Below, piece by piece: positions 20,944 through 39,133 of a stretch of 53,794 nt of DNA (position 1 is its first letter; the number at the start of each line of letters is the position of its first letter). This DNA comes from an uncultured Planctomycetia bacterium (GTDB lineage Bacteria > Planctomycetota > MHYJ01 > CAYXQY01). The stretch lies in NCBI GenBank assembly GCA_964466525.1, contig CAYXQY010000004.1, forward strand, positions 1 to 53,794. Reading direction: 5' to 3'. Under the pieces are notes generated by a model, which was not told the origin of the DNA, did not search any database, and saw nothing but the letters and a program-made list of their open reading frames with translations. Both the position numbers and the translations under genes were made by a program.

Positions 20944-21327
20944 CCTCATGCAGGTGTCCGATCCACTCGTTTGCTGCATCGAAGAGGAGGGGGTGAACGC
21001 ATTTACGGCCTGTCCAATTCTGATTTCGGTTCAGTTCTCGGGAAGTTTCGGCGTTCGAGGATACAACACCGGTTTTCCGGATGAACTCGAAGACGTTCAG
21101 AGACGAAGAGCCCGGCTTACCGATTACCCGGAGAATCAGAGCGCCGTGAAAAAAATCGTGTGCAGATAAAAGATGTGAAGAACCGTTATCCGCAAACCGG
21201 TGATTGCTGGAAAAATAATCGGTGCATAAGCAAAGATCATCGAAAACAAGAATCCGTGAAATACGGTTCGTAGGGGGTATGGTCGGTTAATCCAGATACC
21301 GCGATTACACAAAGACCACGCGGTCAT
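20912..21327 (-). pseudogene. C-terminal relic of a polytopic membrane protein
   Basis: ORF 21136..21327 reads TVFHGFLFSMIFAYAPIIFPAITGLRITVLHIFYLHTIFF. After a 1-nt shift at an A/T homopolymer it continues as HGALILRVIGK... No N-terminal half exists, because the upstream space is occupied by the dehydrogenase gene ending at 21305. Confidence 0.25.
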
Positions 21328-22624: not shown

Positions 22625-22758
22625 GGGGAGTTGTTGAAATGTAAAGGATCAATGAATTGTACGTGGTGTACACCGGTGAGCTGCAGAGTACAAAGACGAG
22701 TTTTTTCAACCGTCATAAGCCATCACTTTAAATGCTCAAGGACAGTGACGAGTGACCG

Positions 22759-24078
22759 TCAAAAGGGTTCCATCTCCCGACGAACTTTTTCCGGTGCAAA
22801 CGGATCATTGAATGAAGCCCGGAAGAACAACTCCTGAATTACGGCCACGATCCGGACCACCTTCAGCGCAATTTTATACGCCGGGTACAATGGAACAATG
22901 AATAACGTCTTGAGATGAGTGCTTCGACGCCGGCTCAGTATCAGTCCAACGGACACCTGAGGAAGTTTCAACAGGACATGAAACACGTAATTGGCCAGGT
23001 AGATGACCAGGAACTGCCCGGGATAGGCCAGAAAGATGTCGATAAGATAAACAGCCCAGAAAAACGTAACGATCATCGTAAAAAACAGGGTATCGACAAA
23101 GGATAAAAGATTTTGCCAGCGGAAGTGGTGGGTCCACAATCGAAACGTGTCCGGATGTCGAAACAGTCGGGTCCGAATGACATTTCGATTCCACCGGAGT
23201 CGCTGTTTGATCAACGAAGTGACTGACGTGGGAGCATTGGTCAAACAGTTTGCCCGGGGATCGAAAACAATTCGTTTCCCCAGTTTACGAATGCGAATCG
23301 TCAGGTCCGAATCGTTGCCGGGCCCGGGCTCGTGTCCGCCGACGCGTTCAAGCAGTGTTCTGGGAAACGAGCCGAACGCCCCGGACACGATGGGTAAAAT
23401 ACCGATCAGGGAGCGGAAGCACCGTCCAACCGTAATCGAAATCAGGTATTCGATGGACTGAAGCATCGTCAGCGGATTTGAAAACCAGTTTCGTACCCCC
23501 AAATTTCCACAGACCGCCCCGACGTCCTCATGTTTAAAATGTCGAATCATGTTCAGCACGGCGTCCCGATCCAGCGTGGTGTCCGAATCCATAAAGATCA
23601 CGTACTCGGACGAGGACACTTCAAGGGCGTGATTCAGCGCCGCCGATTTCCCCTGGCGTTCGTCCTGCCGGTGGAACTCAATTATGCCTTTCCGGGACAG
23701 TTCCCTGCCAATCTCTGGCGTTCGATCATCCGAACCGTCGTCAACGACAATGACCTCCAGGTTCGGATACGTCTGTTCACGAATGGACTCTACGGTCGGT
23801 CGAAGGGTGTCTTCTTCGTTAAGAACAGGAAGAATAACGGCCACCGACGGAGGATTATCCAGTGATTCCAGCTGTCGGGATTCGTCATCAAACGAAAACC
23901 GCCCCCGCAAACTGTACAACAGAACCACGAAGTCGGTGAGCACGTACCGGGGGATTTCAAGAAAAATGATGGCCCAGTAGGTTCGGATGAATGTAGTGGT
24001 TTCCATGGAGATCATAAAGTCATACAAACTCCATAGAAAACGGATCAGTTCACGAAATGAAGAAACAAACCATTCCAT
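22759..24078 (-). CDS. Processive family-2 glycosyltransferase (membrane-embedded polysaccharide synthase, PgaC/HasA/NodC-like)
   Basis: 439 aa with transmembrane segments at both ends. Motifs are VVDDGSDD, GKSAALN, FMDSDT, VSGAFGSF, GNDSDLTIRI and QRLRW (codons at about 23191..23205). Confidence 0.88.
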   Translation of the reverse strand: MEWFVSSFRELIRFLWSLYDFMISMETTTFIRTYWAIIFLEIPRYVLTDFVVLLYSLRGRFSFDDESRQLESLDNPPSVAVILPVLNEEDTLRPTVESIREQTYPNLEVIVVDDGSDDRTPEIGRELSRKGIIEFHRQDERQGKSAALNHALEVSSSEYVIFMDSDTTLDRDAVLNMIRHFKHEDVGAVCGNLGVRNWFSNPLTMLQSIEYLISITVGRCFRSLIGILPIVSGAFGSFPRTLLERVGGHEPGPGNDSDLTIRIRKLGKRIVFDPRANCLTNAPTSVTSLIKQRLRWNRNVIRTRLFRHPDTFRLWTHHFRWQNLLSFVDTLFFTMIVTFFWAVYLIDIFLAYPGQFLVIYLANYVFHVLLKLPQVSVGLILSRRRSTHLKTLFIVPLYPAYKIALKVVRIVAVIQELFFRASFNDPFAPEKVRREMEPF

Positions 24079-24099
24079 CGTTATTCTATGTATGCATCG

Positions 24100-25230
24100 C
24101 TATGAACCATCTTCCCTCGACCTGTCGATGATGATGGTTGACTCATCCTGGTGTCTTGCCTCCTGAAGCCTTGCGATCGTTTCCTCCATCAGGTGGTCGG
24201 GATCTTCAGCATCACTCATCTCTGTCAAACCAACATGCAGTTTCCATTGATGTTCGAACGGACGTTCTCCGTCTTCCAGTCTCGACGTTAGTCTGCGGGC
24301 AAAAACGCCAGCTCCTTCCCGGTCTGTTTCCGAGAGGATCATAGCAAACTGACGGTCCTGATAGACAGCGAGGAAGTCAGCAGTCCGCGTTTCATCTTTG
24401 AAAATTTCTGCCAGGCGTTTCATATCGTTGATGTATTCACCCGCCTCCATAGCCGTTTCCATCTGGTCGAGGGATAATTCAACCGGCACCGGCTCGGCGA
24501 GAAGCAGTGTTCCGGGCCGGTCATACCGTTTCGCCCTGTGGAACTCAATGGATAACTGTTCCCTGAACATTTCAAATGAAAACACGTCGATATCTTCATC
24601 GAACAGCGCCGGGCCCGATTGTGCCAACTCCAGCGACTGTTGCTCGACCGAACGGGTGCCCTGGGACGATAGTTCATACAGGTGAATTTTTCGTTCTTCA
24701 ACGCTGGATATGTCGTGTTCCTCCCCGCACGATAGACAACGGCAGGACACCTCCGGGTCCTCGAATTTATTTCCACAGTTGTCGCAGTAATACAGCGTAT
24801 TTACTTTTTCATAGTCAATGCCAATGTGTTGCAGCTCAGTGTCACATTTTGTGCAGATTAATTTCGACCCCACCTTGTGCTTGATCTCCGGTCCGACGTT
24901 GCCGCAGGAGTAGTGATGAATCATGTCCGTCAGCGTGATTCGGACCGTCCGGCAGTCGGGACAAACTTCACGAAAATTAAGGGTGTAACGACCGCAGTCC
25001 GGACACAGGTGTATACGATCCACAAGTTCCCGGTTGAGAAACCCGTCACCCGCCAGCTCCTCAAGCATTGAGATTGAAGTTGCGGAATCCAGGTCAAACA
25101 GGGCGTCGACATCCGGATAACGATACCCGGTGTCTACAGAACCGGTAAGTTCCGGTTCAAGCACATCCAGGTTCCCATTGCTCAACTGTTTGAGCAGTTC
25201 CAGTTTGGTTTCGCCTTTGACGTCCGCCAT
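24100..25230 (-). CDS. Cys-rich multi-zinc-ribbon domain (TackOD1-like) fused to a degenerate GGDEF domain with an intact I-site. Putative c-di-GMP receptor.
   Basis: CxxC pairs sit at aa 76/79, 90/93, 126/129 and 149/152, plus C163/C165/C168. The C-terminal GGDEF fold reads RTADFLAVYQDRQFAMILSETD. This aligns with the RxxD-x5-GG(D/E)EF pattern, with RxxD kept (24376..24387) and GGDEF replaced by QDRQF (24346..24360). Confidence 0.75.
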   Translation of the reverse strand: MADVKGETKLELLKQLSNGNLDVLEPELTGSVDTGYRYPDVDALFDLDSATSISMLEELAGDGFLNRELVDRIHLCPDCGRYTLNFREVCPDCRTVRITLTDMIHHYSCGNVGPEIKHKVGSKLICTKCDTELQHIGIDYEKVNTLYYCDNCGNKFEDPEVSCRCLSCGEEHDISSVEERKIHLYELSSQGTRSVEQQSLELAQSGPALFDEDIDVFSFEMFREQLSIEFHRAKRYDRPGTLLLAEPVPVELSLDQMETAMEAGEYINDMKRLAEIFKDETRTADFLAVYQDRQFAMILSETDREGAGVFARRLTSRLEDGERPFEHQWKLHVGLTEMSDAEDPDHLMEETIARLQEARHQDESTIIIDRSREDGS

Positions 25231-25239
25231 CAGAATGGA

Positions 25240-26460
25240 TTAAAACCAGTTAAAGAATTCTGTTTCCAGGGAGATGCGTACATGAACGATCATTCCGGGC
25301 CGGAGCTGTTTTTCAGGGTGTTTGAGGTCAATTCGAACGGGAACCACCTCGTATTCCAGATTCAGAGGAGAGTTTTTCCATTGATCGAGAGATGTGAAGG
25401 AACGCTCGTCCGTCCGAGCCGAACGCCGTAAATTGACGGTTCCTGTCAGTGTGAGATTCCTGTTCCCCACGACCGTGATCCTGGCCGGTTCGCCGTGTTC
25501 AAGGGCCGGATATTTCTGGACGGGAACGTACGCCTGAATCCACTGCTCCTCCTGTAAGGTGATGGAAAGAAGGGGTTCATGTTCTGACACATGTTCCTGT
25601 TCTCCTCTCATGACCTGCTGAATCATTCCGTCACGGGGAGCCCTGATGTTTAATTGCTCCCGCATCCGGCGGATCTTTTCCAGTTCGTGTTTCTTTTGCT
25701 TCACGACCGCCTGTTGTTCATTAATTTTTTGTTTTTTCTTTTTTTTCTGGTGTGTGATCGATTTCTTTGTTTGTGAGACGGTCTGCTCTACATTTTCCAG
25801 TTCCGATTTTAAACTGGAAAAGGTGGATCGAGTCACTTTAAAACGGGAGGTGAGGTCGTCGTATTTCGACTGCACCTCAAGGAATTCCGGTCTCGACACC
25901 GCTTCAAGAAGATAGAGTTTTTCAAAGCGCTCAAGTTTGTCGTTTAACTCCTCCTGCTGCTCCCGAAGACGTTTCAATTCAAGCTTTTTTTCGTCCAGCC
26001 GTGACGTGACCTGGACAACTGATCGACGGGAGGAGGTGACTCTGTTATTCCGTTCAGGATCCAGTTCCATGTTTTTCAGTCCCTGGAGTTCCTGTTTCGA
26101 CTGTTCGTAAGCAGACTTTTTTTGTTGAAGTTCAGATTGTATTACCCCGTTCTGAAGGGTCAGCAACAGATCATTTTCCCTGACAGGTGTTCCTTCGGAA
26201 ACGTGAACCGTGGTTATCGTCCCTCCTGTGCTGGCTCGAACCTGAACAGCAGGGTGAATAATCCGCCCGGTGCTTATGACATACCGGGACTCCAGATAAC
26301 TGTAGGCCATGTAAGCCAGGCCAAACAACACGATGCAACCGACGAAAACCCAGAAATACCAGGTTGTTCGTAAGGGGTCTTTCGATTTCTTCGTGGACTC
26401 CGCACGTTGTGGTTCTTCCTGTTTTTCCTTTCTGGATTTGTTCCAGCTTGTGCCTTTCAT
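25240..26460 (-). CDS. HlyD-family membrane fusion (periplasmic adaptor) protein
   Basis: N-terminal TM anchor, a lipoyl/barrel-sandwich start (SEGTPVRENDLLLTLQN), a long coiled coil that includes a lysine run, and a beta-barrel end (AYVPVQKY...VPVRIDL...LRPGMIVHVRI). Confidence 0.85.
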   Translation of the reverse strand: MKGTSWNKSRKEKQEEPQRAESTKKSKDPLRTTWYFWVFVGCIVLFGLAYMAYSYLESRYVISTGRIIHPAVQVRASTGGTITTVHVSEGTPVRENDLLLTLQNGVIQSELQQKKSAYEQSKQELQGLKNMELDPERNNRVTSSRRSVVQVTSRLDEKKLELKRLREQQEELNDKLERFEKLYLLEAVSRPEFLEVQSKYDDLTSRFKVTRSTFSSLKSELENVEQTVSQTKKSITHQKKKKKQKINEQQAVVKQKKHELEKIRRMREQLNIRAPRDGMIQQVMRGEQEHVSEHEPLLSITLQEEQWIQAYVPVQKYPALEHGEPARITVVGNRNLTLTGTVNLRRSARTDERSFTSLDQWKNSPLNLEYEVVPVRIDLKHPEKQLRPGMIVHVRISLETEFFNWF

Positions 26461-26520
26461 TTCTGTTGTGAATAAGCGTTACACGTTACCGGGGAAAATG
26501 GAGGCTCTGTCATCGAACGT

Positions 26521-28864
26521 TCATTCCGGAAGCAACGCATGTTTCATTTGATGATAGTTGTTGAGAATCACACCGCTGAACCACGGGCTCGATTGATACG
26601 GAACGGCAATGGATTCCAGGGCCTCTCGATACGCACGAGGTGTGAGGTCCGTTTTCGTTTCGTGCACTGACCTCTGGTGTTCCACAACATGCCGATTCGC
26701 GATTTCATGCCAGACGGGAACGGGCGAAGAGCTATTTGTGGCGTTCGCCGCATGGTGTAGCAATGATTCGATGTCAACCGGGTCGCTGGCGTGATATCGG
26801 ACGATGAGTTCGTCGAAACGGTCCGGAAGCCGGTTCAAAAACTGTTTGAGGGGAGGGGCATCCAGCGATTTTAGATATAAAAACGGTACGACCAGAAACA
26901 CCCGTTCATCCGGCTGCGTATTCAGAAATCGGTTCTTCTTAAGTTCTCTGGTTTGACGTATGAATGTGTCTGCGGAGACGTCGGAGATGGCACCTGTCCC
27001 AACAGCGATTGCATGAAATGGTTCGGGACTTCGTTCCTGAAAATCCAGAAGGGAGTTTAACCGGCGAGCCGCTGCCCGGGAAACGTTCATGTCCTGATCG
27101 AAAACGGAGACATGTGCAATCGTTTTTCGTTTCCGGTCCCGTATTTCGCTGATGAGGTTGCCAAGGAGTGAATCGTCCTTTTTTTGGACGGGTTCATCCA
27201 CCGTCACAACCAATCGTCTGTAGCTCATCCTCTTCAGGTATTTACGAAGAAAAGATTTCTCCGGTTCACCGGAACGCAATCGACTGAATTTCACTACGAT
27301 TCCTTTTTTTAACGGCTTTTGAGACGTTTTCTTTTTGAAATCTACATCCGTATGATCGGACATCTTTTGAAGCGGAAGATGTTTTGCGGAGGCCCCCATT
27401 GATTCAGCCAGTTCCAGGTACGTCATCGTCAGGTTGCGTTTCTCGGTCAGGATGCCCAGAACGGTTTCAAGATATAAGTGTTTCCGATCCGTGTAATACG
27501 ACCAGTTCGAAAGTGCTCCGCTATCCTGTTGAAGTTTCGCCTCTTCCAGTTCCGATCGGACACGACGGAGACGATTCCGACGATCTTTCAGCATCTGCTG
27601 TTCCGTTCGCATGGTCTCGATTTTGTCAGCTACCTCCTGCTGAATTTCGGATAGTTTCTCGTCCATTTCGGAAATAAGGGTGTTCAGAATGGCCCGTTCT
27701 TCCCTGTTTCGGGCGTTCACAATGGGCCAGTAAAGAAGCGGGATGGAATATCGTCCATCAATCGTCGGGCCGGACGTAAGGTCCTCTGAACCTCCGGTTC
27801 CATAGCTGACGACCCCTTTCGCATCAAGTGGTGTCAATTTCTTGCTTCTGATTTCTCCTTTTTCTCGCCGAAACGCCCCCTGGATCCGGGACACGTCCGT
27901 CCGTCTTGTTATCGCACTTTTGACCGCCCACGGGATCGGGGGTTTATCCGTAATTTCGGGCACCTGTGGCTTCAGTTGCAGCGGGGCGTCCACGGGACGA
28001 TTCAATAAGGTGTTCAGCGTGTTTTTCGCCTGACGAACCGTCATTTTCGTCTCCTGAAGCCGTTCGGACAAATTCTGTATGTCCCGGGTTTCTTGAAGTA
28101 TGGAGAGATCCGGTCGGACGTCGTAAAAGACACGCTGTTCCAGACGGCGTACGGTGGTGCGGGCGAGCCGGAGCCGTCTGTGAAGCACCTGTTTTCGCTT
28201 CTGTTCGAAGAGCACCCGGGCATACGCCTTCGTCGCCAGATATAATTTCTTCCTTTGCTCCCGGGCGTAGATGCTCAGGCGGGAGACCAGCTCTCCTTTC
28301 GCACGTTCAATGCCGTAGTTTCGCTTCCAGATTCCATCGATGACCGACTGGGTCAGGCTGGCAAGAATACCACCGGGATAAAACCGAGTAATGAGGTTGA
28401 ACCGGGGACCGTAGGAAACACCTTCACGATCGAGGGCGGCCCGTGCTCGAATAATCTCATGCAGCTGTTTTTTGTATCGTTGGGTTTCGTGCCTGTATTC
28501 CGGATAAAAGCCGGAGAAGATTTATGTGAGACGTTCTGGAGTTGTTTTTGTGAAACGAAACATACCCCTTACGTACAGCGTTCGTGGATTTCTCAGCTGC
28601 TTCGGTTTCCGACGTGAGTGCGTTGTGCAGGATCTGTCCCCTCTGATCTTCCGGATGCTGCTTACGAAAATCCTTGAGCCGACGTAACGCGTATTCGTCG
28701 TTTCCACGGACGTACTCCAGCAGAATGGATTCAAAGGGTTCGGTCGACTGAAGGGGATCGGGGATCCGCTTCAAATCTGTGGACGCACATCCGTACAGCA
28801 CCAGGAGTAAAAGGCAGCAGATGGCACGATGAAGCCATCGGCCGATCGTGATTCCGGTAGTCAT
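26521..28864 (-). pseudogene. TolC-like outer-membrane-factor lipoprotein with an extra ~290-aa C-terminal domain. The reading frame is broken once at about 28457..28524.
   Basis: ORF 28457..28864 starts with a lipobox (LLLLVLYGC/AS) and ends ...IQARNPTIQKTAA*. The frame of ORF 26521..28215 is open up to 28521 and reads ...QLHEIIRARAALDREGVSYGPRFNLITRFY.... This continues the OEP consensus when one base of the T/A run at about 28468..28473 is removed. Two OEP-type repeats are followed by a non-OEP domain (about 26524..27393). Confidence 0.7.
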
Positions 28865-29420: not shown

Positions 29421-30317
29421 ATGAGGTTTAAACCGAACTTCCTGCAATCCGAAATCCATACAACCGCCAATCAATCCGTTCCGCTCCGTGGATTGGTTTT
29501 GAGCTTCCTTGCTCTGCTCGCCACGTTTATCGTGTATCTTCTCTGGCCGGCCTCCGCCGATAAATACGTGGGTCTGGTCTGGATTTTCAGTTTAATTCCC
29601 CTATTCCTGCTGGCGTATTACAGAGGGATGTGGGGGACGGTGTATGCGGCAACGGCGACCATGATTGCTTTTGGATTGGCCGAGATAATTAGCGTCTTGT
29701 ACCTGGACCAACAATTGAACTGGTGGCTTTACGGCATCGTCGTTGGACTATTGCTTGTGGTGACCCTGTTCACCGGGTGGCTGTCGAGCAGGCTGATCGA
29801 GGAGCGAGAGGAAGCCATGCAGATGGCGTTCAAAGACCCGCTTACCGGGCTCGAGAGTCGTCGGGCACTCGACTTTTATTTTGACAAGCAGGTTGAGGAC
29901 GCCCGCCGCGGACATCAACTGAGTATTGCCTTTTTTGATCTCGATGATTTCAAACATTACAACGACGAGTATGGACACGACGCGGGCGATCAGATTCTCA
30001 GGAAAACGGGGCAGGTATTGCAGGAGAACACAAGGAATGCGGACCTCACCGGTCGATTCGGTGGTGAGGAGTTTCTTTCGATCCTCTCCGGCGAAGCAGA
30101 AGAGGGGGCGAAGATTTTTGCCCAGCGGGTGTGTTCGGACATTGCCGAGATGGATTCACCGCATCCGGATCCACCGACTATCAGCGGGGGGGTCGCGTCC
30201 TGGTCCGAAGATATGGACGAGAAACAGGAGCTGCTTGACCGGGCGGATAAAGCCCTGTACCGGGCCAAGGACAGGGGCGGAAACCTGGTGGTTACATGGT
30301 CGGAAATGGAAGCGTAG
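29421..30317 (+). CDS. Membrane-anchored diguanylate cyclase (GGDEF domain, predicted active)
   Basis: Four to five N-terminal TM helices, then DPLTGLESRRAL...FFDLDDFKHYNDEYGHDAGD...RNADLTGRFGGEEFLSIL. The GGEEF active site and the RxxD I-site are both intact. Confidence 0.9.
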   Translation: MRFKPNFLQSEIHTTANQSVPLRGLVLSFLALLATFIVYLLWPASADKYVGLVWIFSLIPLFLLAYYRGMWGTVYAATATMIAFGLAEIISVLYLDQQLNWWLYGIVVGLLLVVTLFTGWLSSRLIEEREEAMQMAFKDPLTGLESRRALDFYFDKQVEDARRGHQLSIAFFDLDDFKHYNDEYGHDAGDQILRKTGQVLQENTRNADLTGRFGGEEFLSILSGEAEEGAKIFAQRVCSDIAEMDSPHPDPPTISGGVASWSEDMDEKQELLDRADKALYRAKDRGGNLVVTWSEMEA

Positions 30318-30513: not shown

Positions 30514-31458
30514 TCAGAACAGTTCCGCCAGTTGCTCGTCCCCGGTCGTGAGGGCCCACTCGTCGCCGAACTGGTCGAGCATCCGGATGGAGTAGGTGCG
30601 AAAGAACACGCCGATGGGGAGGAAAATCACGTTGGACAGGTACGGAAGAAAACCGATACAGCAGGTAAGACAGCCACCGATCACGAGCACGAACATGCTG
30701 CCAATCGTGAGTAAGGCCTTCAGGAGATAAAACAGCAGGAACGTTCCCGGATACGCTCGCAACACATCGTTCCAGAACAGTTTGCAGGCCGCCCAGCAGC
30801 GGATGTCCCGGCGATACATGACCTGAGCGACGAAATCCGACAGGAGTTGATACCCGATCATGTACACGAAGAACATCAGGGTCCAGATCAGAACACAGAG
30901 AACGAGCCCGACGATGAGAAGTGGGGAGAGGATATCGATCAGCATGAACAGAACCGCTCCAATACCTGCGGAGCCAATGGCCAGTATGCCCCCGAGCAGA
31001 ACGTAGATCAGGCGAACGAAAAACAGGCTGTTTCCCTGCTTCCTGTACGCGTGCCACGGATCCGCGATTGCGGCTTCGTCCCGCAGCGTGGCGTCCAGGA
31101 ATATAAAAGCCCCCCGGGAGCCAAGCCAGAGCAGCAGAACGAGAAACGCAAAAAGTACCAGCACGATCACCACGCCGATGATCACTTCCGCCAGTCCGAC
31201 CCACTGCAGTAACTGATCGAGAAGTTCGGACGGGGGGGTTCCGGAAAATGTATCACCGGGGGCACCGGTTGGGCCTCCGACATTCACGTTGAATTTAAAC
31301 GAAAAACCATCGAACGTAGCGAGGCTGGCAAGGAACCATGCGAAGCCGTACACGAACCACTCTCCTGGGTTGAACGGGTGAAACAACCGGTTCTTCGTCC
31401 AGGTCACGGCCTCGCCGATCGGTTCCGCAACGGAAATTCGACGGTTGTTGTCATCCAT
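30514..31458 (-). CDS. Polytopic membrane protein of unknown function (possibly the GP-PDE-membrane-domain/DUF975-like class)
   Basis: 314 aa with about 6 TM segments and a G+C-rich gene body. It lies downstream of the RDD gene on the same strand. Confidence 0.6.
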   Translation of the reverse strand: MDDNNRRISVAEPIGEAVTWTKNRLFHPFNPGEWFVYGFAWFLASLATFDGFSFKFNVNVGGPTGAPGDTFSGTPPSELLDQLLQWVGLAEVIIGVVIVLVLFAFLVLLLWLGSRGAFIFLDATLRDEAAIADPWHAYRKQGNSLFFVRLIYVLLGGILAIGSAGIGAVLFMLIDILSPLLIVGLVLCVLIWTLMFFVYMIGYQLLSDFVAQVMYRRDIRCWAACKLFWNDVLRAYPGTFLLFYLLKALLTIGSMFVLVIGGCLTCCIGFLPYLSNVIFLPIGVFFRTYSIRMLDQFGDEWALTTGDEQLAELF

Positions 31459-31623
31459 AATAGCCGACTGTAATGATGAATACTGGTATGACTGAATGTA
31501 TGAACATTACACAGGGGGGGCATCGGAATTTAACTATCGGCCCGGTGACGATGAAGTGACGTGAACCTGTTATGCCCTGCAAATTGAGGAGATGAGACGG
31601 AAAAGTGTGTGACGGTGTACCGA

Positions 31624-32628
31624 TCAGGGTTCGCTGTCCTCGGATCTGCCCCGGTCTCGTTCCGGAAGGCGGTATTTTTCCGCGAGCCGCTCCACCAGAT
31701 GACTGGACGAACGGGAGTCGACGTCCTCCTTAATTTCCTCACGCAGGGCTTCGCCGCTGGCCAGTTTTCCTTCCAGGTGGCGGCGCATGGCTCGATAAAA
31801 CGAAGTCAGAAATGGAACGGCCTCCCGGTCCGGGACGGGGTCCGGGAAATCGATTTTCTCCACGACCCGGTCCTTGATCTGTTGGAGGGTGGCGCTGTTG
31901 TCGTTACCGGCTGTGCCGTTCTGACCGTGCAACCGATTTTCCAGCGCATCCTGGAGGGCGTTGAGCTGGACGATTCCGTACACGTCAAGCATCTCGTTGC
32001 GAAACGCATACGAACGTTCTCCGCCGGCAGCGGCATGGTCGAGCAGGTCCTGATTCAGCGACACCGGGTCCGGTGATTCGATCACGACCGTTCCCGCAAC
32101 GACGTCCCCCAGTCGCCGGTTTGTCGTGGAGACGAAAGGAATGACCAGGAATCCGAGACACCAGAGCAGCAGGGGTTCGGTCGGGTAGCCGCTGAGAAGC
32201 ATGTAAAGTACCGAAGCGGGAATCCAGAACTCCACCTCGCGCAGGAGGTTGCGGGTGACCACGGCGGAGAGCCGAAGCGGCTGACCGTCGGCGTTCAGTA
32301 CCTGAATGCCGGCAAGGGATTTGCCGATCGTCTGTCCGAACCAGCGCCACTCCGTCCAGATCCAGTATCCGACCCGCAGGAACAGGGAGCCCAGGAGAAC
32401 AAGAAGAAGCGGTACGGCACTTCCGGTAAACAGTCCGGCGTAAAAGGCGGTAAACCCGAACAGGACCAGGCAGGTGACGATAAGCACCGTGTCGAATACG
32501 ACGGCCCCGAGCCGTGCACCGAGGCCGGCCGGGGCGAACTGAAGGGTGATATCGTCCGGGGTTTCCCATTCAATCACCGCGTCCGATCCGGAGTAGGTCC
32601 TCTTCCGGTTTGAATGCGGATTGGCCAT
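31624..32628 (-). CDS. RDD-family membrane protein with a ~150-aa cytoplasmic C-terminal extension
   Basis: GLGARLGAVVFDTVLIV...TIGKSLAGIQVLNADGQPL...VTRNLLREVE...NRRLGDVVAGTVVI, the RDD-domain pattern. Confidence 0.75.
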   Translation of the reverse strand: MANPHSNRKRTYSGSDAVIEWETPDDITLQFAPAGLGARLGAVVFDTVLIVTCLVLFGFTAFYAGLFTGSAVPLLLVLLGSLFLRVGYWIWTEWRWFGQTIGKSLAGIQVLNADGQPLRLSAVVTRNLLREVEFWIPASVLYMLLSGYPTEPLLLWCLGFLVIPFVSTTNRRLGDVVAGTVVIESPDPVSLNQDLLDHAAAGGERSYAFRNEMLDVYGIVQLNALQDALENRLHGQNGTAGNDNSATLQQIKDRVVEKIDFPDPVPDREAVPFLTSFYRAMRRHLEGKLASGEALREEIKEDVDSRSSSHLVERLAEKYRLPERDRGRSEDSEP

Positions 32629-32726
32629 GATTGTTCCTTCCGGTGGAATTCGTTAGGATTGAAGGAAGGCGGTAACGACGATGGATTCTTCATTTTACAC
32701 GGATTTACGCGGGAAACATACGGTCC

Positions 32727-33767
32727 ATGAAGCCACGGGATCTACGCAAGAAACGCGAGGGCCGCTGGCGTGAGCTGGAAGAACACGTGTCAACCATTGA
32801 GGACAACGGACTTTCCGGGTTGGACTATGAAGAGGTTCGAAGACTCGGCGGCCTGTACCGGATGACCGTGGGCAGCTACGCGGTCCTCAGTGAACTGTCG
32901 CTGGACCGGCGGCTTCACCGGTACCTGAAAAATCTAATCGCCCGTGCACACCTGGCCATCTATCACTACGACCTGAACCCGGACGTGCGGCCGGACCGGT
33001 TCCTGCGGAACGATTTCCCATCCCTTGTTCGAAAACATGCCGGCAAGTTGCTGGTGGCGATACTCACCATGTTGTTCTCGATGGGGTTTGCCCTGCTGCT
33101 GACAACTTATGAGCGACAGTACGCTGACGTGTTCATTCCCAGGTCGATGGCGCAGGAGCGGACCAGTTTTGCTTCGACGGACACGTTGCGTGACGTGCTG
33201 TATACCGGCCGGGGGAGCGGGGCGGAAAAACGCGTGTTATTCTCCACGTACCTGTTCGTGCATAACACGCGCGTGGGTCTGATGTCGTTCGGGTTCGGGT
33301 TGCTTGGCGGGATGCCCGCGCTGGTCAGTGGATCGTACAACGGGTTGATGCTGGGAAGCATGGCCGGGTTGTACCACGTGCACGGGTTGGGGTACGAATT
33401 CTGGGGATGGGTGCTTCCGCACGGGGTGACTGAACTGCTGGCGATCGTGCTGTGCCTGCAGGCGGGGTTGGTCGTCGGGCTGACGCTTGTGTACCCGGGC
33501 GCGGAGCCGTGGGTGGACGCCGTATCTCGCGCGGGTCGGGAGGCGGGACAGATCGTCCTCGGAACCGTGCCGATGTTCCTGATAGCGGGGGCCATCGAGG
33601 GCGTGCTACGGCAGGTGCGGCAGGAGCATTTCCCGTGGGAGGCCCGTCATTTCTTCGCCCTGTTGACTTTTGTTTTCTGGATATGGTACTTCGGGTTCTG
33701 CGGCCGGGACGCCGCTGCAGGAGAGGCGACCTCGAATGATACGTTGAATCACATTTCACAGCTATAA
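32727..33767 (+). CDS. Stage II sporulation protein M-like (DUF95) membrane protein
   Basis: FVHNTRVGLMSFGFGLLGGMPALVSGSYNGLMLGS...WVLPHGVTELLAIVLCLQAGL, the SpoIIM/DUF95 signature, preceded by a soluble helical N-terminus. Confidence 0.75.
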   Translation: MKPRDLRKKREGRWRELEEHVSTIEDNGLSGLDYEEVRRLGGLYRMTVGSYAVLSELSLDRRLHRYLKNLIARAHLAIYHYDLNPDVRPDRFLRNDFPSLVRKHAGKLLVAILTMLFSMGFALLLTTYERQYADVFIPRSMAQERTSFASTDTLRDVLYTGRGSGAEKRVLFSTYLFVHNTRVGLMSFGFGLLGGMPALVSGSYNGLMLGSMAGLYHVHGLGYEFWGWVLPHGVTELLAIVLCLQAGLVVGLTLVYPGAEPWVDAVSRAGREAGQIVLGTVPMFLIAGAIEGVLRQVRQEHFPWEARHFFALLTFVFWIWYFGFCGRDAAAGEATSNDTLNHISQL

Positions 33768-33771
33768 GCAC

Positions 33772-34794
33772 ATGGCCAAAAATCAGTTTGTTTGCGAGGA
33801 ATGCAAACGACAGCTACAGGTGGACGAGGACGAAACCGGTCAGGAGGTGCGATGCCCGCACTGTGAGCACGTAATGCACGTGCCCGACGAGCCGGCCTCC
33901 GGACAGGAGCAGGACGCCGTGACCGGTGCCGGCGCCGGCGTGGACGGTGAACCGGCCGGGGCGGGACCTGCTGATGTGAAGGACGAATTCGAATCCCCCG
34001 AATCCACAGGAGCGGACGTGCCGGGAACGGGTGATGCCGGCGCGTCCCGGACGGGGTCAAAGTTCAGCGTCACGGGGGTGCTCGAAACCAGTTTCAGCAT
34101 TTTCTTTGAGGATTTTGTCTCGTTTATTTCGCTCGGACTGATCGTCCTGTCTCCGCTGTTGCTGGTCACGCTGATCCTGGTGCTGAGCCCGATGGAAGCG
34201 GGGGAATTACAGATAACCTGGCAGGTCACGAACCTGGGGACGTCACTTGTGCTGCTGCCCCTGCTTGCCGGGGCGATGATGTACGGGGTGATACGTCGGT
34301 TGAACGGTGAAGGTTTTGTCGTAACCGAATGCCTGTCCGACGCGTTTGCCCTGCTCTTTCCGCTGATCGGGGTCTCGCTCCTGCAGGGGTTGATTATTCT
34401 GGTCGGAGGGGTCTTCTGCCTGATCCCCGGCCTGGTGGCATTGACCATGCTGTACGTCAGTACGCCGGCTCTCGTTATCGAGAAGACGGGCGTCATCGAC
34501 GCGCTGGGACGAAGTTACAACCTGACGTCCGGTCATCTCCTGCGTATTTTCGGGATTATTCTGGTCCTGTTCCTGCTCAACCTGGTTCTCGTATTGCCCG
34601 TGCAGTTCTCCACGGTCGGGTTCGTTCCGGCCGGAGCCACAGTTTCCTCGATGAAACTCTTCATCTGCGGTTCCACCCTGATGGCCCTCATTACAAATAC
34701 CATTGCTTCGATTACCGTGGCCACGACCTATTACTTCCTGCGGATGGATGAAGAGGACACGACCATCGACGAACTCGTTCACCTGTTTGATTGA
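33772..34794 (+). CDS. Zinc-ribbon protein with a polytopic membrane domain (unknown function)
   Basis: The N-terminus FVCEECKRQLQVDEDETGQEVRCPHCEHVMHVP has the CxxC...CxxC pattern. A Gly/Ala/Asp-rich linker follows, then about 6 TM helices. The start is 4 nt after the SpoIIM-like stop. Confidence 0.7.
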   Translation: MAKNQFVCEECKRQLQVDEDETGQEVRCPHCEHVMHVPDEPASGQEQDAVTGAGAGVDGEPAGAGPADVKDEFESPESTGADVPGTGDAGASRTGSKFSVTGVLETSFSIFFEDFVSFISLGLIVLSPLLLVTLILVLSPMEAGELQITWQVTNLGTSLVLLPLLAGAMMYGVIRRLNGEGFVVTECLSDAFALLFPLIGVSLLQGLIILVGGVFCLIPGLVALTMLYVSTPALVIEKTGVIDALGRSYNLTSGHLLRIFGIILVLFLLNLVLVLPVQFSTVGFVPAGATVSSMKLFICGSTLMALITNTIASITVATTYYFLRMDEEDTTIDELVHLFD

Positions 34795-34823
34795 GGGCAG
34801 TTGTGCCAGCACGCGTAATACCG

Positions 34824-35603
34824 ATGAAGGCTGTAAAAGGTCCGGTTCGAACGGTCGGAACCGGGTGGAATGTACAGGTTATTCTCCTTCTGGCCCTATG
34901 CGTCATGGTTCCGTGTCCGTACTCCGTGGCGGCACCGGAAGACCTCCCCCCGTCGGAGCAGGCACGGGAAATCCTCGAGGAAGGAGATTTCCAGCGGGAT
35001 CCGCCCGACATCGGTGCGACCGGACAGCGATCCGGGGAAGAGGCCGGGGATACATCGGGTTCGGAAGGGAACCAATCGGGGGAGGACGCGATGGTCGGGA
35101 TGGAATACCTTGGCTGGTTGCGTTATCTGGGGGCCGTATTGAACGTGTTGATGTGGGTTGCGATTGTTCTTGTGATAGGGGGGGCAGGGTATATTCTGTT
35201 CCGAGCGTTTCAATCGGAAACCGAAGACGCCGACGAGCCCCCCGGTCCGGAAACGGGGGACGATCCGGCCGTGACGGCGCAATCGCTGGATGCGGACGAA
35301 ATGCAGAGGACGCTTGCGGACGCGGACGAACTGGCACGGGACGGACGGTACACGGATGCCATTCGACGGATGTTCCTTGACGCGGTGGACCGCATTGAAC
35401 GTGAACTGGACGTTCCGCTTGCCATGTCCGAAACCAACCACGAGTACCTCGACCGTATACGGGAAACCGACGTACGACACCTCTGCGAGAAGCTCGTGCT
35501 GGCCGTCGATCGGTTTTACTACGGCGGGGAGACGTGTGCGGAAGCCGATTACCGGGACTGCCGCCGCATCTGGAAGAAGGTCCAGAACCGGGCTCGTTCA
35601 TGA
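34824..35603 (+). CDS. DUF4129-domain protein
   Basis: ATG 34824 gives a signal/anchor sequence (MKAVKGPVRTVGTGWNVQVILLLALCVMV), while the ORF track starts at TTG 34791. The C-terminus ARDGRYTDAIRRMFLDAVDRIE...SETNHEYLDRI...AVDRFYYGGE matches my memory of DUF4129. Confidence 0.65.
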   Translation: MKAVKGPVRTVGTGWNVQVILLLALCVMVPCPYSVAAPEDLPPSEQAREILEEGDFQRDPPDIGATGQRSGEEAGDTSGSEGNQSGEDAMVGMEYLGWLRYLGAVLNVLMWVAIVLVIGGAGYILFRAFQSETEDADEPPGPETGDDPAVTAQSLDADEMQRTLADADELARDGRYTDAIRRMFLDAVDRIERELDVPLAMSETNHEYLDRIRETDVRHLCEKLVLAVDRFYYGGETCAEADYRDCRRIWKKVQNRARS

Positions 35604-35665
35604 CCACGCTCGGTTCAGATGGCGGACGCCGTGTATGATTCAATAGGGAAGGAGATGTTTCCATA

Positions 35666-36910
35666 ATGGATAGACGCACAATTCTTGTCGTATCGGTGTT
35701 TTTCCTGCTGGCGGTGATCGGAATACTGGTTGGCGTCCTGACCGGGGGGGAGACGCCGAACCGGGCCAGTGTAATGAGCCGGTCCGTGATCGGGCATCGC
35801 GCCGTGGTCGAGCTGCTGGAGCGAAATGAGTTTCGGATCTTTGTGAACCGGAAAACGAATCCCCGCCCGGAGGAGGGAGAAGGGTTGGTGGTATTCGCGC
35901 CGTCTCCGCCGTCCGAGCGGCCGGAGGAACAACCGTCCTGGCGGCGGCTATCGGAACAGTTTAGCCCGGAACTGATCGTGCTACCCAAATGGCAGGGCAT
36001 CGAGCATCCGGAGCGAGCGGACTGGTTTTACATTACGCAGCGTTACGAGAACGAGGTGATTGAGAAGCTGCTACCGAAGGACACCGACTGGTCCGTCGAC
36101 GTCCGTTCGTCGAGCGGCGGTGACGAAGATGCCGCGGGAACGACGCACGAGGTTCGGTCCGCGAACGGGCGGCGGATACCGGTTCGGTCACAGGGCCTGC
36201 AAGTCATTGACGCGAGCGATCAGGCAGAGGTGCTCTGGCGTGTGGACGGGGTGCCCGTGGTACTCCGGGAGCCGGGCTCGGACCGGATCTGGGTTTCCGA
36301 TCCGGATCTGTTGAGCAACATGTTTCTTGATCAGGAACAAAACGCGGCGTTTGCACTGGCGTTGTTTCAGGAGGTGTTTCCCGAACGTCGTTTCCTCGTC
36401 GACGAGCTGCACCACGGGTACGGGATCGAGGGAGGCGTGCTCGAACTGCTGTTTACGTTTCCCGGCGTGGTTTTGACGATCAGTGCTGTTTTCCTTATGG
36501 TCTGTTTTTACTGGTCGCTGTACTGTAGCTGGAGCGGTCAGGAAGGGAATCGGACGGGGAACCGGCGCCGCCGGGAACAGGCCGAGGCAATGGGGCGGTT
36601 GACGCACGCACACGGCAATCATCCCTACGCGGCACGGCAGTATCTGTCGAACATGAAATCCCTGATCGCGGAGGCGGTGAACCTCCCGGGGGACGAGGAC
36701 TGGAACGGAATTGTTCGGCGGCTGGATCACCTCCGTCCTTCGCTTGCCGATCAACTGCGATCGGTGGTGGAAGATCGGGACGTGCTGAGGGGGGAGGAGG
36801 TGCGGGAGCAACAACTTCTGGAAATCGTAAGACAGGCACACACTGTTTACAGGCAACTACGTGATGAACTCAGTGAAGGAACTGCGGAACCGGCTCCAGG
36901 ACGAAATTAA
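35666..36910 (+). CDS. DUF4350-like membrane-anchored protein
   Basis: N-terminal TM segment, then SRSVIGHRAVVELLERNEFRIFVNR..., a second TM segment near aa 270, and a helical C-terminus. Its position between DUF4129 and MoxR is typical of this neighbourhood. Confidence 0.55.
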   Translation: MDRRTILVVSVFFLLAVIGILVGVLTGGETPNRASVMSRSVIGHRAVVELLERNEFRIFVNRKTNPRPEEGEGLVVFAPSPPSERPEEQPSWRRLSEQFSPELIVLPKWQGIEHPERADWFYITQRYENEVIEKLLPKDTDWSVDVRSSSGGDEDAAGTTHEVRSANGRRIPVRSQGLQVIDASDQAEVLWRVDGVPVVLREPGSDRIWVSDPDLLSNMFLDQEQNAAFALALFQEVFPERRFLVDELHHGYGIEGGVLELLFTFPGVVLTISAVFLMVCFYWSLYCSWSGQEGNRTGNRRRREQAEAMGRLTHAHGNHPYAARQYLSNMKSLIAEAVNLPGDEDWNGIVRRLDHLRPSLADQLRSVVEDRDVLRGEEVREQQLLEIVRQAHTVYRQLRDELSEGTAEPAPGRN

Positions 36911-37814
36911 GCAGGTCTTTTTCGGGCAGGTGGAGGTCACGGATCACTGCCTGATGGCGCTTCTCTGTGAGGGACACATACTTGTTGAAGGGGTGCCCGG
37001 TACAGCGAAGACACTTCTGGCACGCTCCATTGCGTCTGCACTCTCCCTTGATTTCGGGCGCATCCAGTTTACGCCGGACCTGCTTCCGAACGATATTACC
37101 GGGACAAACGTGTTTAATTTTCACGCCAATGAATTTGTACTGAACAGGGGACCGGTCTTTAATCATATTCTCCTCGGCGATGAAATTAACCGTTCTCCCC
37201 CGAAAACACAGTCGGCGCTGCTGGAGTCCATGCAGGAGCGGCAGGTGACGATCGACAACGACACGTACGAGCTGGAGGAGCCCTTCATGGTCATCGCCAC
37301 ACAGAACCCGATCGAGCACGAGGGAACGTATCCTCTGCCGGAGGCCCAGCTGGATCGGTTTCTGTTCAAGGTGCGCATGGAGTACCCGGAGAAGGAGGTG
37401 GAGGAACGGATCGTTGCCGCCCACTCCGGAGGATCAAATGTAAGACAACTCAGTGAGACAACCGTCCGGGCGGTTGCCGACCGGGAGGACCTGCTTGAAG
37501 CACGGGATCGCGTCCGGTCCGTGGAGGTGCGTGAACCGGTGGTGGACTACATCGTTCGTCTGGTGCGTCGGACCCGGGAAGCCCCACGTGTGGACACCGG
37601 CGCGTCCCCCCGGGCGTCCGTCATGCTGACCATCGCGGCAAAAGCGAAGGCCGCACTGGAGGGCCGTGCGTACATCATACCGGACGACGTCAAGCAGACG
37701 TTGCTTCCGACACTTCGCCACCGACTCGTGCTGTCCCCGGAGAGTGAGATTGAGGGGGTGACGCCCGATCGCGTCCTGGAGGACCTCGTCAAGCAGGTCG
37801 AGGTTCCACGGTGA
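36864..37814 (+). CDS. MoxR-family AAA+ ATPase
   Basis: Walker A (EGVPGTAKT), Walker B (ILLGDEINR), sensor and arginine-finger region (ATQNPIEHEGTYPLPEAQLDRF), and the C-terminal lid ...GASPRASVML. The start overlaps the preceding gene. Confidence 0.92.
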   Translation: MNSVKELRNRLQDEIKQVFFGQVEVTDHCLMALLCEGHILVEGVPGTAKTLLARSIASALSLDFGRIQFTPDLLPNDITGTNVFNFHANEFVLNRGPVFNHILLGDEINRSPPKTQSALLESMQERQVTIDNDTYELEEPFMVIATQNPIEHEGTYPLPEAQLDRFLFKVRMEYPEKEVEERIVAAHSGGSNVRQLSETTVRAVADREDLLEARDRVRSVEVREPVVDYIVRLVRRTREAPRVDTGASPRASVMLTIAAKAKAALEGRAYIIPDDVKQTLLPTLRHRLVLSPESEIEGVTPDRVLEDLVKQVEVPR

Positions 37815-39133
37815 TGCGGTTTTATCCGGGGCGCGTGCTGCTGTATCTGCTCGGAATCGGATGTGTGCTCGCGGTTCTTCCGATGTTCGTTCCGGGTACC
37901 GGTACGGTAATCGCCGTGTGCTACCAGGTTGCGGTGCTGACCGCCGCCGTCGCTGACGGGATCCTTACTCGACCGATGGACGCTGGACGGATGACCGTAA
38001 CGGTACCGGACGAGCTCGGCGTGGGCCGGTCCGGTACAATCCAGCTGCGCGTCGAGAACGAGAACAGCGTGCCGGTGCGCGGTCAGCTATTGCTCCGGAC
38101 ACCGGATTCGGTTTCCCCGGACCGGCAGTACTGGGATCGGGTGTTTCCGGCGGGGGAGGAGGTGGTTCTTGAAACGGGCGTACAGGCGAGAACACGGGAG
38201 CGTGCGGAATTCGGTCCGGTGCAACTGCGGCATCGCGGGGTGCTTTCCCTTCTGGTGTTTCCGTCGAAACGAGCGAACGCAGGTGTAACGGAGATCCGGC
38301 CCGACATCCACGAAATTCGAAACAGTGAACTTCGCATCCCGCAGATCATTCAGTACCTGACCGGTCAGAAATCGATGGATCGGCGGGCACGGGACGGGGC
38401 GTTCGATTCGCTGGTGGAGTACGAACCGGGCATGGATCCCCGCAAGATCGACTGGAAAGCCTCCGCAAGGCATTATCGGATGCTCTCGCGGCAACACCGG
38501 ATCGAACAGAACCATTCCGTGTATTTCCTGATGGACGCCGGCCGGCTGATGGGCACACGGCTCAACGACGTTCAGAAACTGGACTGGGCGATCAACGCCG
38601 CGCTTCGCCTGTCGTTTCTTGCCCTGAACGTGGGGGATCGGGTGGGGATCATGGGGTTCGCCCGGGATATGCTGCGAATTGAACGGGCCCGGGACGGCAT
38701 GCCGCAGTTTCAGCAGCTACTCAGGGCAATGAACGACCTGACACCGCAGGACCGTGAGACCAATTTTATGCGGGCGTTCCGCGTGTTTTCCCGCGTCGAG
38801 CGTGAGCGTTCGCTGGTGGTGGTGTTCACGGATTTCGTCGACCGGGCGTCCGCGTCCCTGCTTCTTGAAGCACTGTCCCTCATGCGCAAACGGCATGTCG
38901 TGCTGTTCGTTGCCTGCCGGGACGTCGCTCTGGAGCAGTCGCTCCTCGACCCCCCCGTCAATCTGATGGACGTGCATCGGCAGAACGAATCCTTTCGTCT
39001 GCTCCGGGAACGGGAAGAGGTCATTGAGGAAATTCAACGGATGGGAATAAAAACCATCGACGAAGACGTATCACGGGTCACCCCCTCCCTGATCAATCAG
39101 TACCTCCAGCTCAAATACCGACAGCGTGTGTGA
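37814..39133 (+). CDS. DUF58 (vWA-like) protein, the usual MoxR partner
   Basis: Two N-terminal TM helices, then YEPGMDPRKIDWKASARHYRMLSRQHRIEQNHSVYFLMDAGRLMG, the DUF58 hallmark. The start shows a TGATG overlap with the moxR stop (a GTG at 37811 is an alternative). Confidence 0.85.
   Translation: MRFYPGRVLLYLLGIGCVLAVLPMFVPGTGTVIAVCYQVAVLTAAVADGILTRPMDAGRMTVTVPDELGVGRSGTIQLRVENENSVPVRGQLLLRTPDSVSPDRQYWDRVFPAGEEVVLETGVQARTRERAEFGPVQLRHRGVLSLLVFPSKRANAGVTEIRPDIHEIRNSELRIPQIIQYLTGQKSMDRRARDGAFDSLVEYEPGMDPRKIDWKASARHYRMLSRQHRIEQNHSVYFLMDAGRLMGTRLNDVQKLDWAINAALRLSFLALNVGDRVGIMGFARDMLRIERARDGMPQFQQLLRAMNDLTPQDRETNFMRAFRVFSRVERERSLVVVFTDFVDRASASLLLEALSLMRKRHVVLFVACRDVALEQSLLDPPVNLMDVHRQNESFRLLREREEVIEEIQRMGIKTIDEDVSRVTPSLINQYLQLKYRQRV

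Follow-up and report, generated by a model that had tools for sequence, protein, structure and literature searches.

A rearranged seven-gene MoxR/DUF58–SpoIIM/RDD membrane module in an uncultured planctomycete and its possible role as an ATP-driven complex of the cell envelope

Introduction

What does a tight cluster of genes for membrane proteins, gathered around a MoxR-type AAA+ ATPase, do in an uncultured Planctomycetia bacterium? The question is raised by positions 30514–39133 of a 53,794-nucleotide stretch of its genome (assembly GCA_964466525.1, contig CAYXQY010000004.1; the whole stretch is hereafter called the window), where an earlier annotation made by a model from the DNA letters (the sequence-only reading) had described an eight-gene module and proposed that it encodes one membrane-embedded machine. 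For this segment we read the open reading frames (ORFs) from the sequence, scanned their products with Pfam and surveyed related loci. That the genes work together at the membrane is borne out by their fixed order over at least eight phyla, by recurrent gene overlaps, by three fusions of SpoIIM to RDD and by the finding that no unrelated family recurs in the flanks. The one-machine reading is reasonable and better supported after this analysis, and the function that we propose for it below is hypothetical.

MoxR ATPases paired with proteins bearing a von Willebrand factor A (vWA) domain are well established, as in RavA–ViaA, NorQ–NorD and CbbQ–CbbO, and MoxR–DUF58 pairs are among the commonest uncharacterised ATPase modules in prokaryotes. 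A 2025 review still treats DUF58 as functionally unidentified.

Results

Organization of the locus

The segment holds eight ORFs at the positions first described, and Pfam hidden Markov models agreed with the initial domain assignments (RDD, SpoIIM, DUF4129, DUF4350, MoxR, DUF58 and zinc-ribbon matches). The features are as follows:

30514–31458, minus strand: DUF7544 polytopic membrane protein, 314 aa (Pfam DUF7544, 1.6e-25)
31624–32628, minus strand: RDD-family membrane protein, 334 aa, with a C-terminal tail of ~150 aa (Pfam RDD, 4.4e-18)
32629–32726: divergent intergenic spacer of 98 nt between the RDD (minus) and SpoIIM (plus) genes (read from the sequence)
32727–33767, plus strand: SpoIIM/DUF95-family protein, 346 aa (Pfam SpoIIM, 3.4e-28)
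33772–34794, plus strand: polytopic protein with a zinc ribbon, DUF7847/UPF0259 (YciC)-like, 340 aa (Pfam matches below gathering threshold)
34791–35603, plus strand: bitopic DUF4129 protein (Pfam DUF4129, 1.2e-7)
35666–36910, plus strand: DUF4350 protein, 414 aa (Pfam DUF4350, 1.7e-9)
36861–37814 (ORF), plus strand: MoxR-type AAA+ ATPase, ~316 aa from the ATG at 36864 (AAA_3, 7e-64; AAA_lid_2, 7e-21)
37811–39133 (ORF), plus strand: DUF58 protein, ~439 aa, start at 37814 (DUF58, 1.4e-27; VWA_2, 5e-7)

An NCBIfam scan of the module proteins gave nothing specific beyond Pfam. By hydropathy every product except MoxR has transmembrane (TM) segments, and the junctions read from the sequence are also those that had been described: besides the 98-nt divergent spacer, 4 nt separate the SpoIIM gene from the zinc-ribbon/DUF7847-like gene, the DUF4350 gene and moxR overlap by 47 nt (provided that MoxR starts at ATG 36864), and moxR and the DUF58 gene meet in TGATG with a 1-nt overlap. 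The DUF4129 gene has two candidate starts, TTG 34791 (which would overlap the upstream gene by 4 nt) and ATG 34824, the latter being the more plausible, and an AGGAG ribosome-binding site lies upstream of the DUF4350 gene. The DUF7544 gene follows the RDD gene by 165 nt on the same strand. Promoters for both divergent units are presumed to lie in the 98-nt spacer; it holds no consensus sigma-70 match, so that promoter function there is something we infer, and a scan of the locus for promoters and terminators gave promoter-like sites at chance level and no terminator-like site between genes.

Conservation of the module across phyla

Since a homologue search with the DUF4350 protein returned only 8 proteins, SpoIIM was taken as the anchor for scanning genomes; the contigs of those DUF4350 relatives carry the same neighbour genes. 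The SpoIIM homologue search gave 163 matches, and a scan with the invariant SpoIIM motif, using one genome per species, matched 250 genomes, from which 80 loci were obtained. In all 85 related loci the ORFs, taken from stop to stop, were searched with iterated profiles (jackhmmer) seeded by the window proteins, and a full-flank set was made of the 42 loci in which SpoIIM has 7 kb or more upstream and 3 kb or more downstream. Because loci were picked by similarity to the window SpoIIM, the counts given here describe that SpoIIM subfamily.

Within the full-flank set RDD was present in 42/42 loci, DUF58 and MoxR in 41/42 each, DUF4350 and DUF4129 in 40/42 each and the DUF7847-like protein in 36/42, with DUF7544 in 0/42. 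In 40 of the 42 the six core families lie on one strand in one order, DUF4129–DUF4350–MoxR–DUF58–SpoIIM–RDD, and the module occurs in Planctomycetota, Myxococcota, Acidobacteriota, Methylomirabilota, Chloroflexota, Alphaproteobacteria, Eisenbacteria and Bradymonadia. Recurrence of such neighbourhoods in distant phyla, including actinobacteria, had been stated in the sequence-only reading, and it holds: synteny in these 40 full loci spans at least eight phyla, and the actinobacterial case follows from published annotation (PMC8191103).

All six core families are present in the window cluster, where the order is RDD on the minus strand, followed on the plus strand by SpoIIM, DUF7847-like, DUF4129, DUF4350, MoxR and DUF58, and so is not the canonical collinear one. 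The canonical order has been rearranged in the Planctomycetia clade to which the window belongs: RDD is inverted, and SpoIIM and the DUF7847-like gene have moved to the front, as they also have in the close relatives L001, L006 and L007. Close packing, with overlapping and translationally coupled genes, is also found elsewhere: in four related loci (L001 and L003–L005) the DUF4129 and DUF4350 genes overlap by 4 nt (4/4), DUF4350 and moxR by 14–62 nt (4/4), and moxR and DUF58 by 4 nt (3/4), and in canonical loci the DUF58 and SpoIIM genes often overlap. Median pairwise identity is highest for MoxR (0.63), followed by SpoIIM (0.51), DUF58 (0.46), RDD (0.43), DUF4350 (0.30), the DUF7847-like protein (0.28) and DUF4129 (0.27), the fastest-evolving member.

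The original description of an eight-gene module stands in part. The tightly packed set is real, and the conserved unit comprises seven genes, given that a profile search found no match to DUF7544 in the 85 related loci and that DUF7544 homologues on long contigs (P0134, P0151 and P0148) all lie in unrelated contexts (3/3). The DUF7544 gene is thus probably a neighbour and not a member of the conserved module. That it might be a diverged paralogue of the DUF7847-like gene was considered and rejected (hhalign probability 0.35%). Nor are the two polytopic or zinc-ribbon genes local additions, as had been thought: DUF7544 is no member, and the DUF7847-like gene is recurrent, being found beside the module or inside it in 36/42 full loci: in Acidobacteriota and others it comes immediately before the core, and in Myxococcota and Alphaproteobacteria immediately after it, on the other strand. 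Clustering of the flanking genes, aimed at a client or extra member shared across phyla, returned only lineage-restricted neighbours and a generic response regulator. The module is self-contained, without a co-encoded client.

On one probable myxobacterial contig (L004, 1–8907) the module stands directly beside a type VI secretion VgrG/PAAR-toxin/immunity cassette.

SpoIIM and RDD proteins

The AlphaFold2 model of the window SpoIIM (predicted local distance difference test, pLDDT, 92.5) shows a helical domain at the N-terminus, on the cytoplasmic side, and then six TM helices. The protein belongs to a subfamily with N-terminal DUF8413 and an LPHGxTE motif; all 120 homologues among the matches listed combine DUF8413 (PF28475) with PF01944, and its closest relatives, at 75% and 50% identity, are from uncultured Planctomycetia. 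The motif W-x-L-P-H232-G-x-T-E236 is invariant, H232, G233 and E236 being so in both alignments A1 and A2, and the invariant or near-invariant polar residues are R145, N180, H232, T235, E236, E291 and R295. Charged residues are conserved inside the TM helices, and by helix boundaries the polar cluster (H232, T235, E236, E291 and R295, with R145) would occupy the first periplasmic loop (R145) and the outer halves of TM4 and TM5. Foldseek comparison of the model with the PDB gave no match with E<1 (best E 1.3), and sequence and profile searches of the PDB with SpoIIM, RDD, DUF4129 and DUF4350 gave none. A profile search of 1.84 billion representative proteins collected 1,921 SpoIIM clusters at E<=1e-30.

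Three independent proteins of 632–656 aa (P0199, P0203 and P0229) are in-frame SpoIIM–RDD fusions, and through them a physical link between SpoIIM and RDD is indicated. An apparent DUF58–SpoIIM fusion (P0244) was rejected, its 100-residue junction resembling out-of-frame translation. Another protein, P0312 (1161 aa), joins a SpoIIM-family membrane domain to a set of three GAF domains, which suggests that some members of the family may be coupled directly to small-molecule sensing.

The RDD protein has four hydrophobic segments by hydropathy and a C-terminal tail of ~150 aa that is conserved across the module. Conserved residues are R39, D46, E93, G98-T-x-G-K103 and R172-x-G-D175, and in the tail those from F209 to G292. 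Its N-terminus is assigned to the cytoplasm, where the SpoIIM–RDD fusions place it, and the positive residues after the last hydrophobic segment indicate that the tail is probably cytoplasmic too.

MoxR ATPase and its DUF58 partner

The ATPase carries AAA_3 and its lid domain, and next to its gene lies that for a DUF58 protein, which contains a vWA domain. All aligned MoxR orthologues keep the Walker A GxPGxxKT and the Walker B DE; the protein is soluble, with no hydrophobic segment by hydropathy, and the closest PDB entry is 2r44 (3e-81), a structural-genomics structure.

The DUF58 protein consists of an N-terminal TM hairpin, a middle region and the vWA domain (Pfam, hydropathy), and a PDB sequence and profile search with it found no relative. 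Its vWA domain looks cytoplasmic, as it follows the two-TM hairpin and has a cytoplasmic partner in MoxR. Across 81 orthologues the metal site reads D242-x-G244-x-L246-M247, E316-x-N318 and T340-D-F-x-D344, with E316, N318, T340, F342 and D344 invariant and D242 in 81/81. The canonical DxSxS of the metal ion-dependent adhesion site (MIDAS) is lacking and DxGxL stands in its place, the two serine positions being Gly in 81/81 and Leu in 78/81. By sequence, then, this vWA site is conserved yet non-canonical, and the substitution matters for how the vWA domain works but does not affect membership of the DUF58 family.

DUF7847-like, DUF4129 and DUF4350 proteins

The DUF7847-like protein is composed of a zinc ribbon (CxxC...CxxC, residues 8–31), an acidic linker and a polytopic membrane domain. 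Its Pfam matches to Zn_ribbon_4/5, DUF7847 and UPF0259 are all below the gathering threshold, and its orthologues in L001 and L003 match DUF7847. As the ribbon is found in 21/77 copies from several phyla, it is an ancestral or recurrent feature and not a local one. Residues 1–45 (window positions 33772–33900) also match, weakly, the N-terminus of the Myxococcus gliding-motility protein GltJ in NCBIfam (E 0.001), probably through a shared MJ0042-type ribbon only.

The DUF4129 protein begins with a signal-anchor; after an acidic linker in the periplasm and a second TM segment comes the cytoplasmic DUF4129 helical domain (Pfam, hydropathy). The DUF4350 protein has an N-terminal anchor, a periplasmic domain of ~220 aa, a TM segment and a cytoplasmic helical tail of ~125 aa; by hydropathy its periplasmic domain is the only sizeable one of the module. 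Foldseek related this domain to class I GATase1-like and beta-galactosidase-trimerisation-like domains (best E 6e-4), in agreement with the similarity of DUF4350 to GldG reported earlier (PMC5898192). It has no conserved Cys; S38, S40, G43, P107-K108, D212-P-D214 and D246-E...H250-G are conserved, and the domain is predicted to adopt a non-catalytic glutamine-amidotransferase-like (GldG-like) fold. When the cytoplasmic domains of the module were compared all against all as profiles, the only signal was a weak one between DUF4129 and the DUF4350 tail (probability 23%).

Relation to known systems

No experimental function for the neighbourhood was found in the literature, as the sequence-only reading had it, but the module has not gone unnoticed. 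Makarova, Galperin and Koonin in 2015 already described archaeal clusters of arCOG01314 (DUF4350), MoxR and vWA proteins, which they predicted to form a secretion or membrane remodelling complex, and gave one sentence to a bacterial SpoIIM–vWA–ATPase neighbourhood (PMC5898192). Moreover, consecutive M. chelonae genes for DUF4350, MoxR, DUF58, SpoIIM and RDD proteins, with orthologues Rv3691–Rv3695, are tabulated in PMC8191103, which reports their joint down-regulation and that of genes nearby. By annotation, the M. tuberculosis moxR2 locus has the families of the window (DUF4350, Rv3691; MoxR, Rv3692; DUF58, Rv3693; SpoIIM, Rv3694c; RDD, Rv3695) and also the membrane proteins Rv3689 and Rv3690, orthology for M. 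tuberculosis and M. chelonae/M. abscessus being by the published annotation table and not by sequence. Orientation differs: SpoIIM is on the opposite strand in mycobacteria, whereas RDD is inverted in the window. Reports on this locus include a strong CRP chromatin immunoprecipitation peak at Rv3688c/Rv3689, a requirement of Rv3691 for slow growth in BCG and an Rv3690 mutation in one cycloserine-resistant mutant. The window locus is a rearranged member of a known but uncharacterised module, and the neighbourhood is not new as a genomic finding.

Like the window, the archaeal clusters combine in a single operon an anchored DUF4350 protein with a GldG-like domain, a COG0714 MoxR and a protein of vWA/DUF58 type. 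SpoIIM, RDD and DUF4129 are absent from them, and they add S-layer-like Ig-domain membrane proteins (arCOG02884/COG4743), of which none was found among the eight window proteins or the recurrent flanks. Their vWA protein was regarded as secreted by Makarova et al., whereas in the window the vWA domain looks cytoplasmic.

By Pfam architecture, the C-terminal domain of TgpA-type transglutaminases is DUF4129, which in the window is carried by a separate bitopic protein; this would make DUF4129 the likely coupling domain. The P. aeruginosa operon PA2875-PA2874-tgpA (PMC3507681) encodes a MoxR ATPase, a DUF58 protein and TgpA, an essential transglutaminase of the periplasm. This operon and the bifidobacterial PFNA cluster resemble the window in joining MoxR and DUF58 to a membrane protein whose effector domain is periplasmic. 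They differ in that the window has no transglutaminase core domain (the DUF4129 protein gives no Transglut_core match), its periplasmic domain appears to be the non-catalytic DUF4350 fold, and SpoIIM, RDD and DUF7847 partners are not described for the TgpA and PFNA operons. In Bat operons, the vWA membrane proteins BatA/BatB and tetratricopeptide repeat proteins lie downstream of MoxR–DUF58; in the window the gene after DUF58 encodes a sulfatase, and the cluster has no second vWA or tetratricopeptide repeat protein.

The SpoIIM of Bacillus (from the SpoIIDMP engulfment complex) and the SpoIIM/DUF95 proteins of head-to-tail cyclized bacteriocin systems are of the same family (PF01944) and are polytopic organisers of outer-face events. 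The window subfamily differs from them in its extra cytoplasmic N-domain, DUF8413, and in being paired with RDD. Neither SpoIID nor SpoIIP is among the 28 window proteins scanned, and Planctomycetia are not known to sporulate. A circular-bacteriocin-like peptide pathway would be short of a precursor gene and a transporter here: no small peptide gene lies between the module genes, and no ABC transporter in or beside the module. For RDD, characterised members of the same Pfam family offer partial analogies. B. subtilis SppI associates in the membrane with another membrane protein and regulates this partner through its own C-terminal domain (PMC7568657), which recalls the conserved RDD tail and the SpoIIM pairing of the window; the partner of SppI is the SppA protease, whereas that of the window RDD is SpoIIM. 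An RDD protein of Halobacillus andaensis was reported to have Na+/H+ antiport activity (PMC5996927).

Genomic surroundings

The remaining genes of the window are in keeping with a chromosome from a planctomycete, with SecY and RpoA at one end followed by DapF, LpxR, sulfatases and glycoside hydrolases. Other features of note are:

17055–18125, minus strand: homologue of LpxR-family lipid A 3'-O-deacylases (9e-81)
21305–28215, minus strand: genes for UDP-glucose dehydrogenase, a family-2 glycosyltransferase (chitin/cellulose-synthase-like), TackOD1 fused to a partial GGDEF domain, an HlyD-like membrane-fusion protein and a 564-aa protein without Pfam match
29421–30317, plus strand: stand-alone GGDEF diguanylate cyclase (1.4e-40), with the polysaccharide cluster on one side and the DUF7544 gene on the other
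49525–51330 and 51966–53684, both minus strand: large ORFs of 601 and 572 aa with no Pfam match at E<=1e-5

From its gene content, the set at 21305–28215 looks like a cyclic di-GMP-linked exopolysaccharide synthase operon.

Discussion

A tentative model of one complex at the membrane

How, then, might seven such proteins work together? Our tentative answer, which we hold at a little short of even confidence, is that 31624–39133 is a seven-gene inner-membrane module encoding one ATP-driven complex that acts at the outer face of the membrane. The soluble parts of the module (the vWA domain of DUF58, the N-domain of SpoIIM, the tails of DUF4350 and RDD, DUF4129 and the zinc ribbon) would face the cytoplasm and could together form a platform for a MoxR hexamer. 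Docked via the vWA domain of DUF58, MoxR would spend ATP on the SpoIIM/RDD core and the bitopic proteins that go with it, whether by assembling, gating or resetting them. We place the action at the outer face, where the DUF4350 domain and the polar cluster of SpoIIM would lie. The activity so switched at the outer face of the cytoplasmic membrane would most plausibly be maintenance or remodelling of the cell envelope, and not the maturation of a co-encoded soluble client enzyme. By analogy, assembly or quality control of an envelope complex, the function first put forward for the locus, may be what the module serves.

An envelope role is suggested by three systems. In Bacillus, SpoIIM scaffolds cell-wall hydrolases (as summarised in PMC5898192); in M. 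tuberculosis, Rv3694c (SpoIIM) and Rv3695 (RDD) are both among the proteins recovered with the divisome-associated Rv0954 on purification (PMC8093794); and the third is the TgpA operon. A more specific version, which we consider improbable, would give the SpoIIM/RDD core an outer-leaflet site for catalysis or transport (the invariant His-Thr-Glu, Glu-Arg cluster), driven by MoxR and the vWA protein and acting on a lipid-linked or envelope substrate. If true, this would be a new class of ATP-powered envelope biogenesis or translocation in mycobacteria, myxobacteria, planctomycetes and acidobacteria.

Several points weigh against one outer-face complex. That MoxR/DUF58 and the SpoIIM/RDD pair share a complex is what we infer, and the topology of the module rests on hydropathy and one fusion. 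The placement of the SpoIIM polar cluster was read from helix boundaries and not from coordinates, and the AlphaFold2 model of DUF4350 is only moderately confident (pLDDT 67). With the canonical DxSxS absent from DUF58, docking chemistry may differ from that of known MoxR–vWA pairs. The mycobacterial hints of an envelope role are one mass-spectrometry list and scattered omics mentions. Three loci also depart from the pattern: in L004 a 3-kb gap with unrelated genes (CarD, cold-shock) parts DUF58 from SpoIIM, in L038 (Bradymonadia) SpoIIM–RDD stands alone within 10 kb, and in L071 (a deltaproteobacterial contig) MoxR is 7.4 kb from DUF58 and there is no DUF4129 or DUF4350 gene.

Alternative explanations

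The separated loci lead to the alternative that survives best, although we think it unlikely: two co-regulated devices, an ATPase block (DUF4129–DUF4350–MoxR–DUF58) and a SpoIIM–RDD(–DUF7847) pair, would serve a shared pathway and form no joint complex. The blocks are indeed apart in L004 and rearranged in the window clade, SpoIIM–RDD is alone in L038, the archaeal DUF4350–MoxR–vWA clusters have no SpoIIM, and the verified fusions join SpoIIM to RDD only. Such a division sits poorly with the 40/42 loci in which the two blocks are contiguous, often with overlapping DUF58 and SpoIIM genes, a degree of linkage across phyla that is unusual for co-regulation alone.

Could the membrane proteins instead form the channel of a novel secretion or translocation system that MoxR powers or assembles? 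This is what Makarova et al. proposed for the archaeal DUF4350–MoxR–vWA clusters (PMC5898192), and it would suit the resemblance of DUF4350 to GldG, an accessory subunit of an ABC transporter linked to gliding and the type IX secretion system, a fold confirmed here by Foldseek, as well as the charged residues conserved inside the SpoIIM TM helices and the place of SpoIIM-family proteins at the core of clusters for circular-bacteriocin export and maturation (PMC8659200). We nevertheless find it improbable. Pfam and flank clustering gave no co-encoded substrate and no outer-membrane or S-layer-like component, there is one sizeable periplasmic domain only, and the vWA domain, behind its two-TM hairpin and with a cytoplasmic MoxR partner, looks cytoplasmic and not secreted. 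Diderm phyla and mycobacteria, moreover, both have the module though their envelopes differ.

Equally improbable in our judgement is a classical MoxR–vWA maturation chaperone, which would activate a client or supply it with a metal or cofactor. That client, an enzyme or a respiratory complex, would be encoded elsewhere, and the membrane proteins would serve as tethers or handle metal. Precedents are numerous (MoxR and methanol dehydrogenase, NorQ/NorD, CoxD/CoxE, CbbQ/CbbO, and RavA/ViaA with respiratory complexes), and the conserved His/Asp/Glu clusters in SpoIIM and in the periplasmic domain of DUF4350 would be in keeping with metal handling. Known cases usually adjoin their client, however, and none is linked to the module in any phylum surveyed; the MIDAS serines are replaced in 81/81 orthologues, and five dedicated membrane partners exceed the need of a tether.

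An anti-phage or conflict system of the MoxR–vWA ternary type is very improbable, for although Pfam gives a weak bpMoxR match (2.6e-10) and PMC12067865 cites Kaur et al. 2020 as tying some MoxR–vWA systems to biological conflict, PADLOC returned a 29-residue P-loop match only, Pfam found no beta-propeller or effector domain, the gene order is fixed and core-genome-like across phyla, and the window context is one of housekeeping (SecY, RpoA, DapF) and polysaccharide-degradation genes.

Significance

In this version of the MoxR–DUF58 module the five membrane partners are a fixed set and no client is encoded alongside; it is present in M. tuberculosis (Rv3689–Rv3695), and its SpoIIM subfamily alone amounts to ~1,900 clusters at 50% identity. 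For work on it, our analysis supplies a corrected parts list, a topology model, the SpoIIM–RDD fusions and invariant residues to mutate. If true, the single ATP-driven complex at the outer face that we tentatively favour would provide a first role for five DUF families and the first role of SpoIIM and RDD outside Firmicutes.

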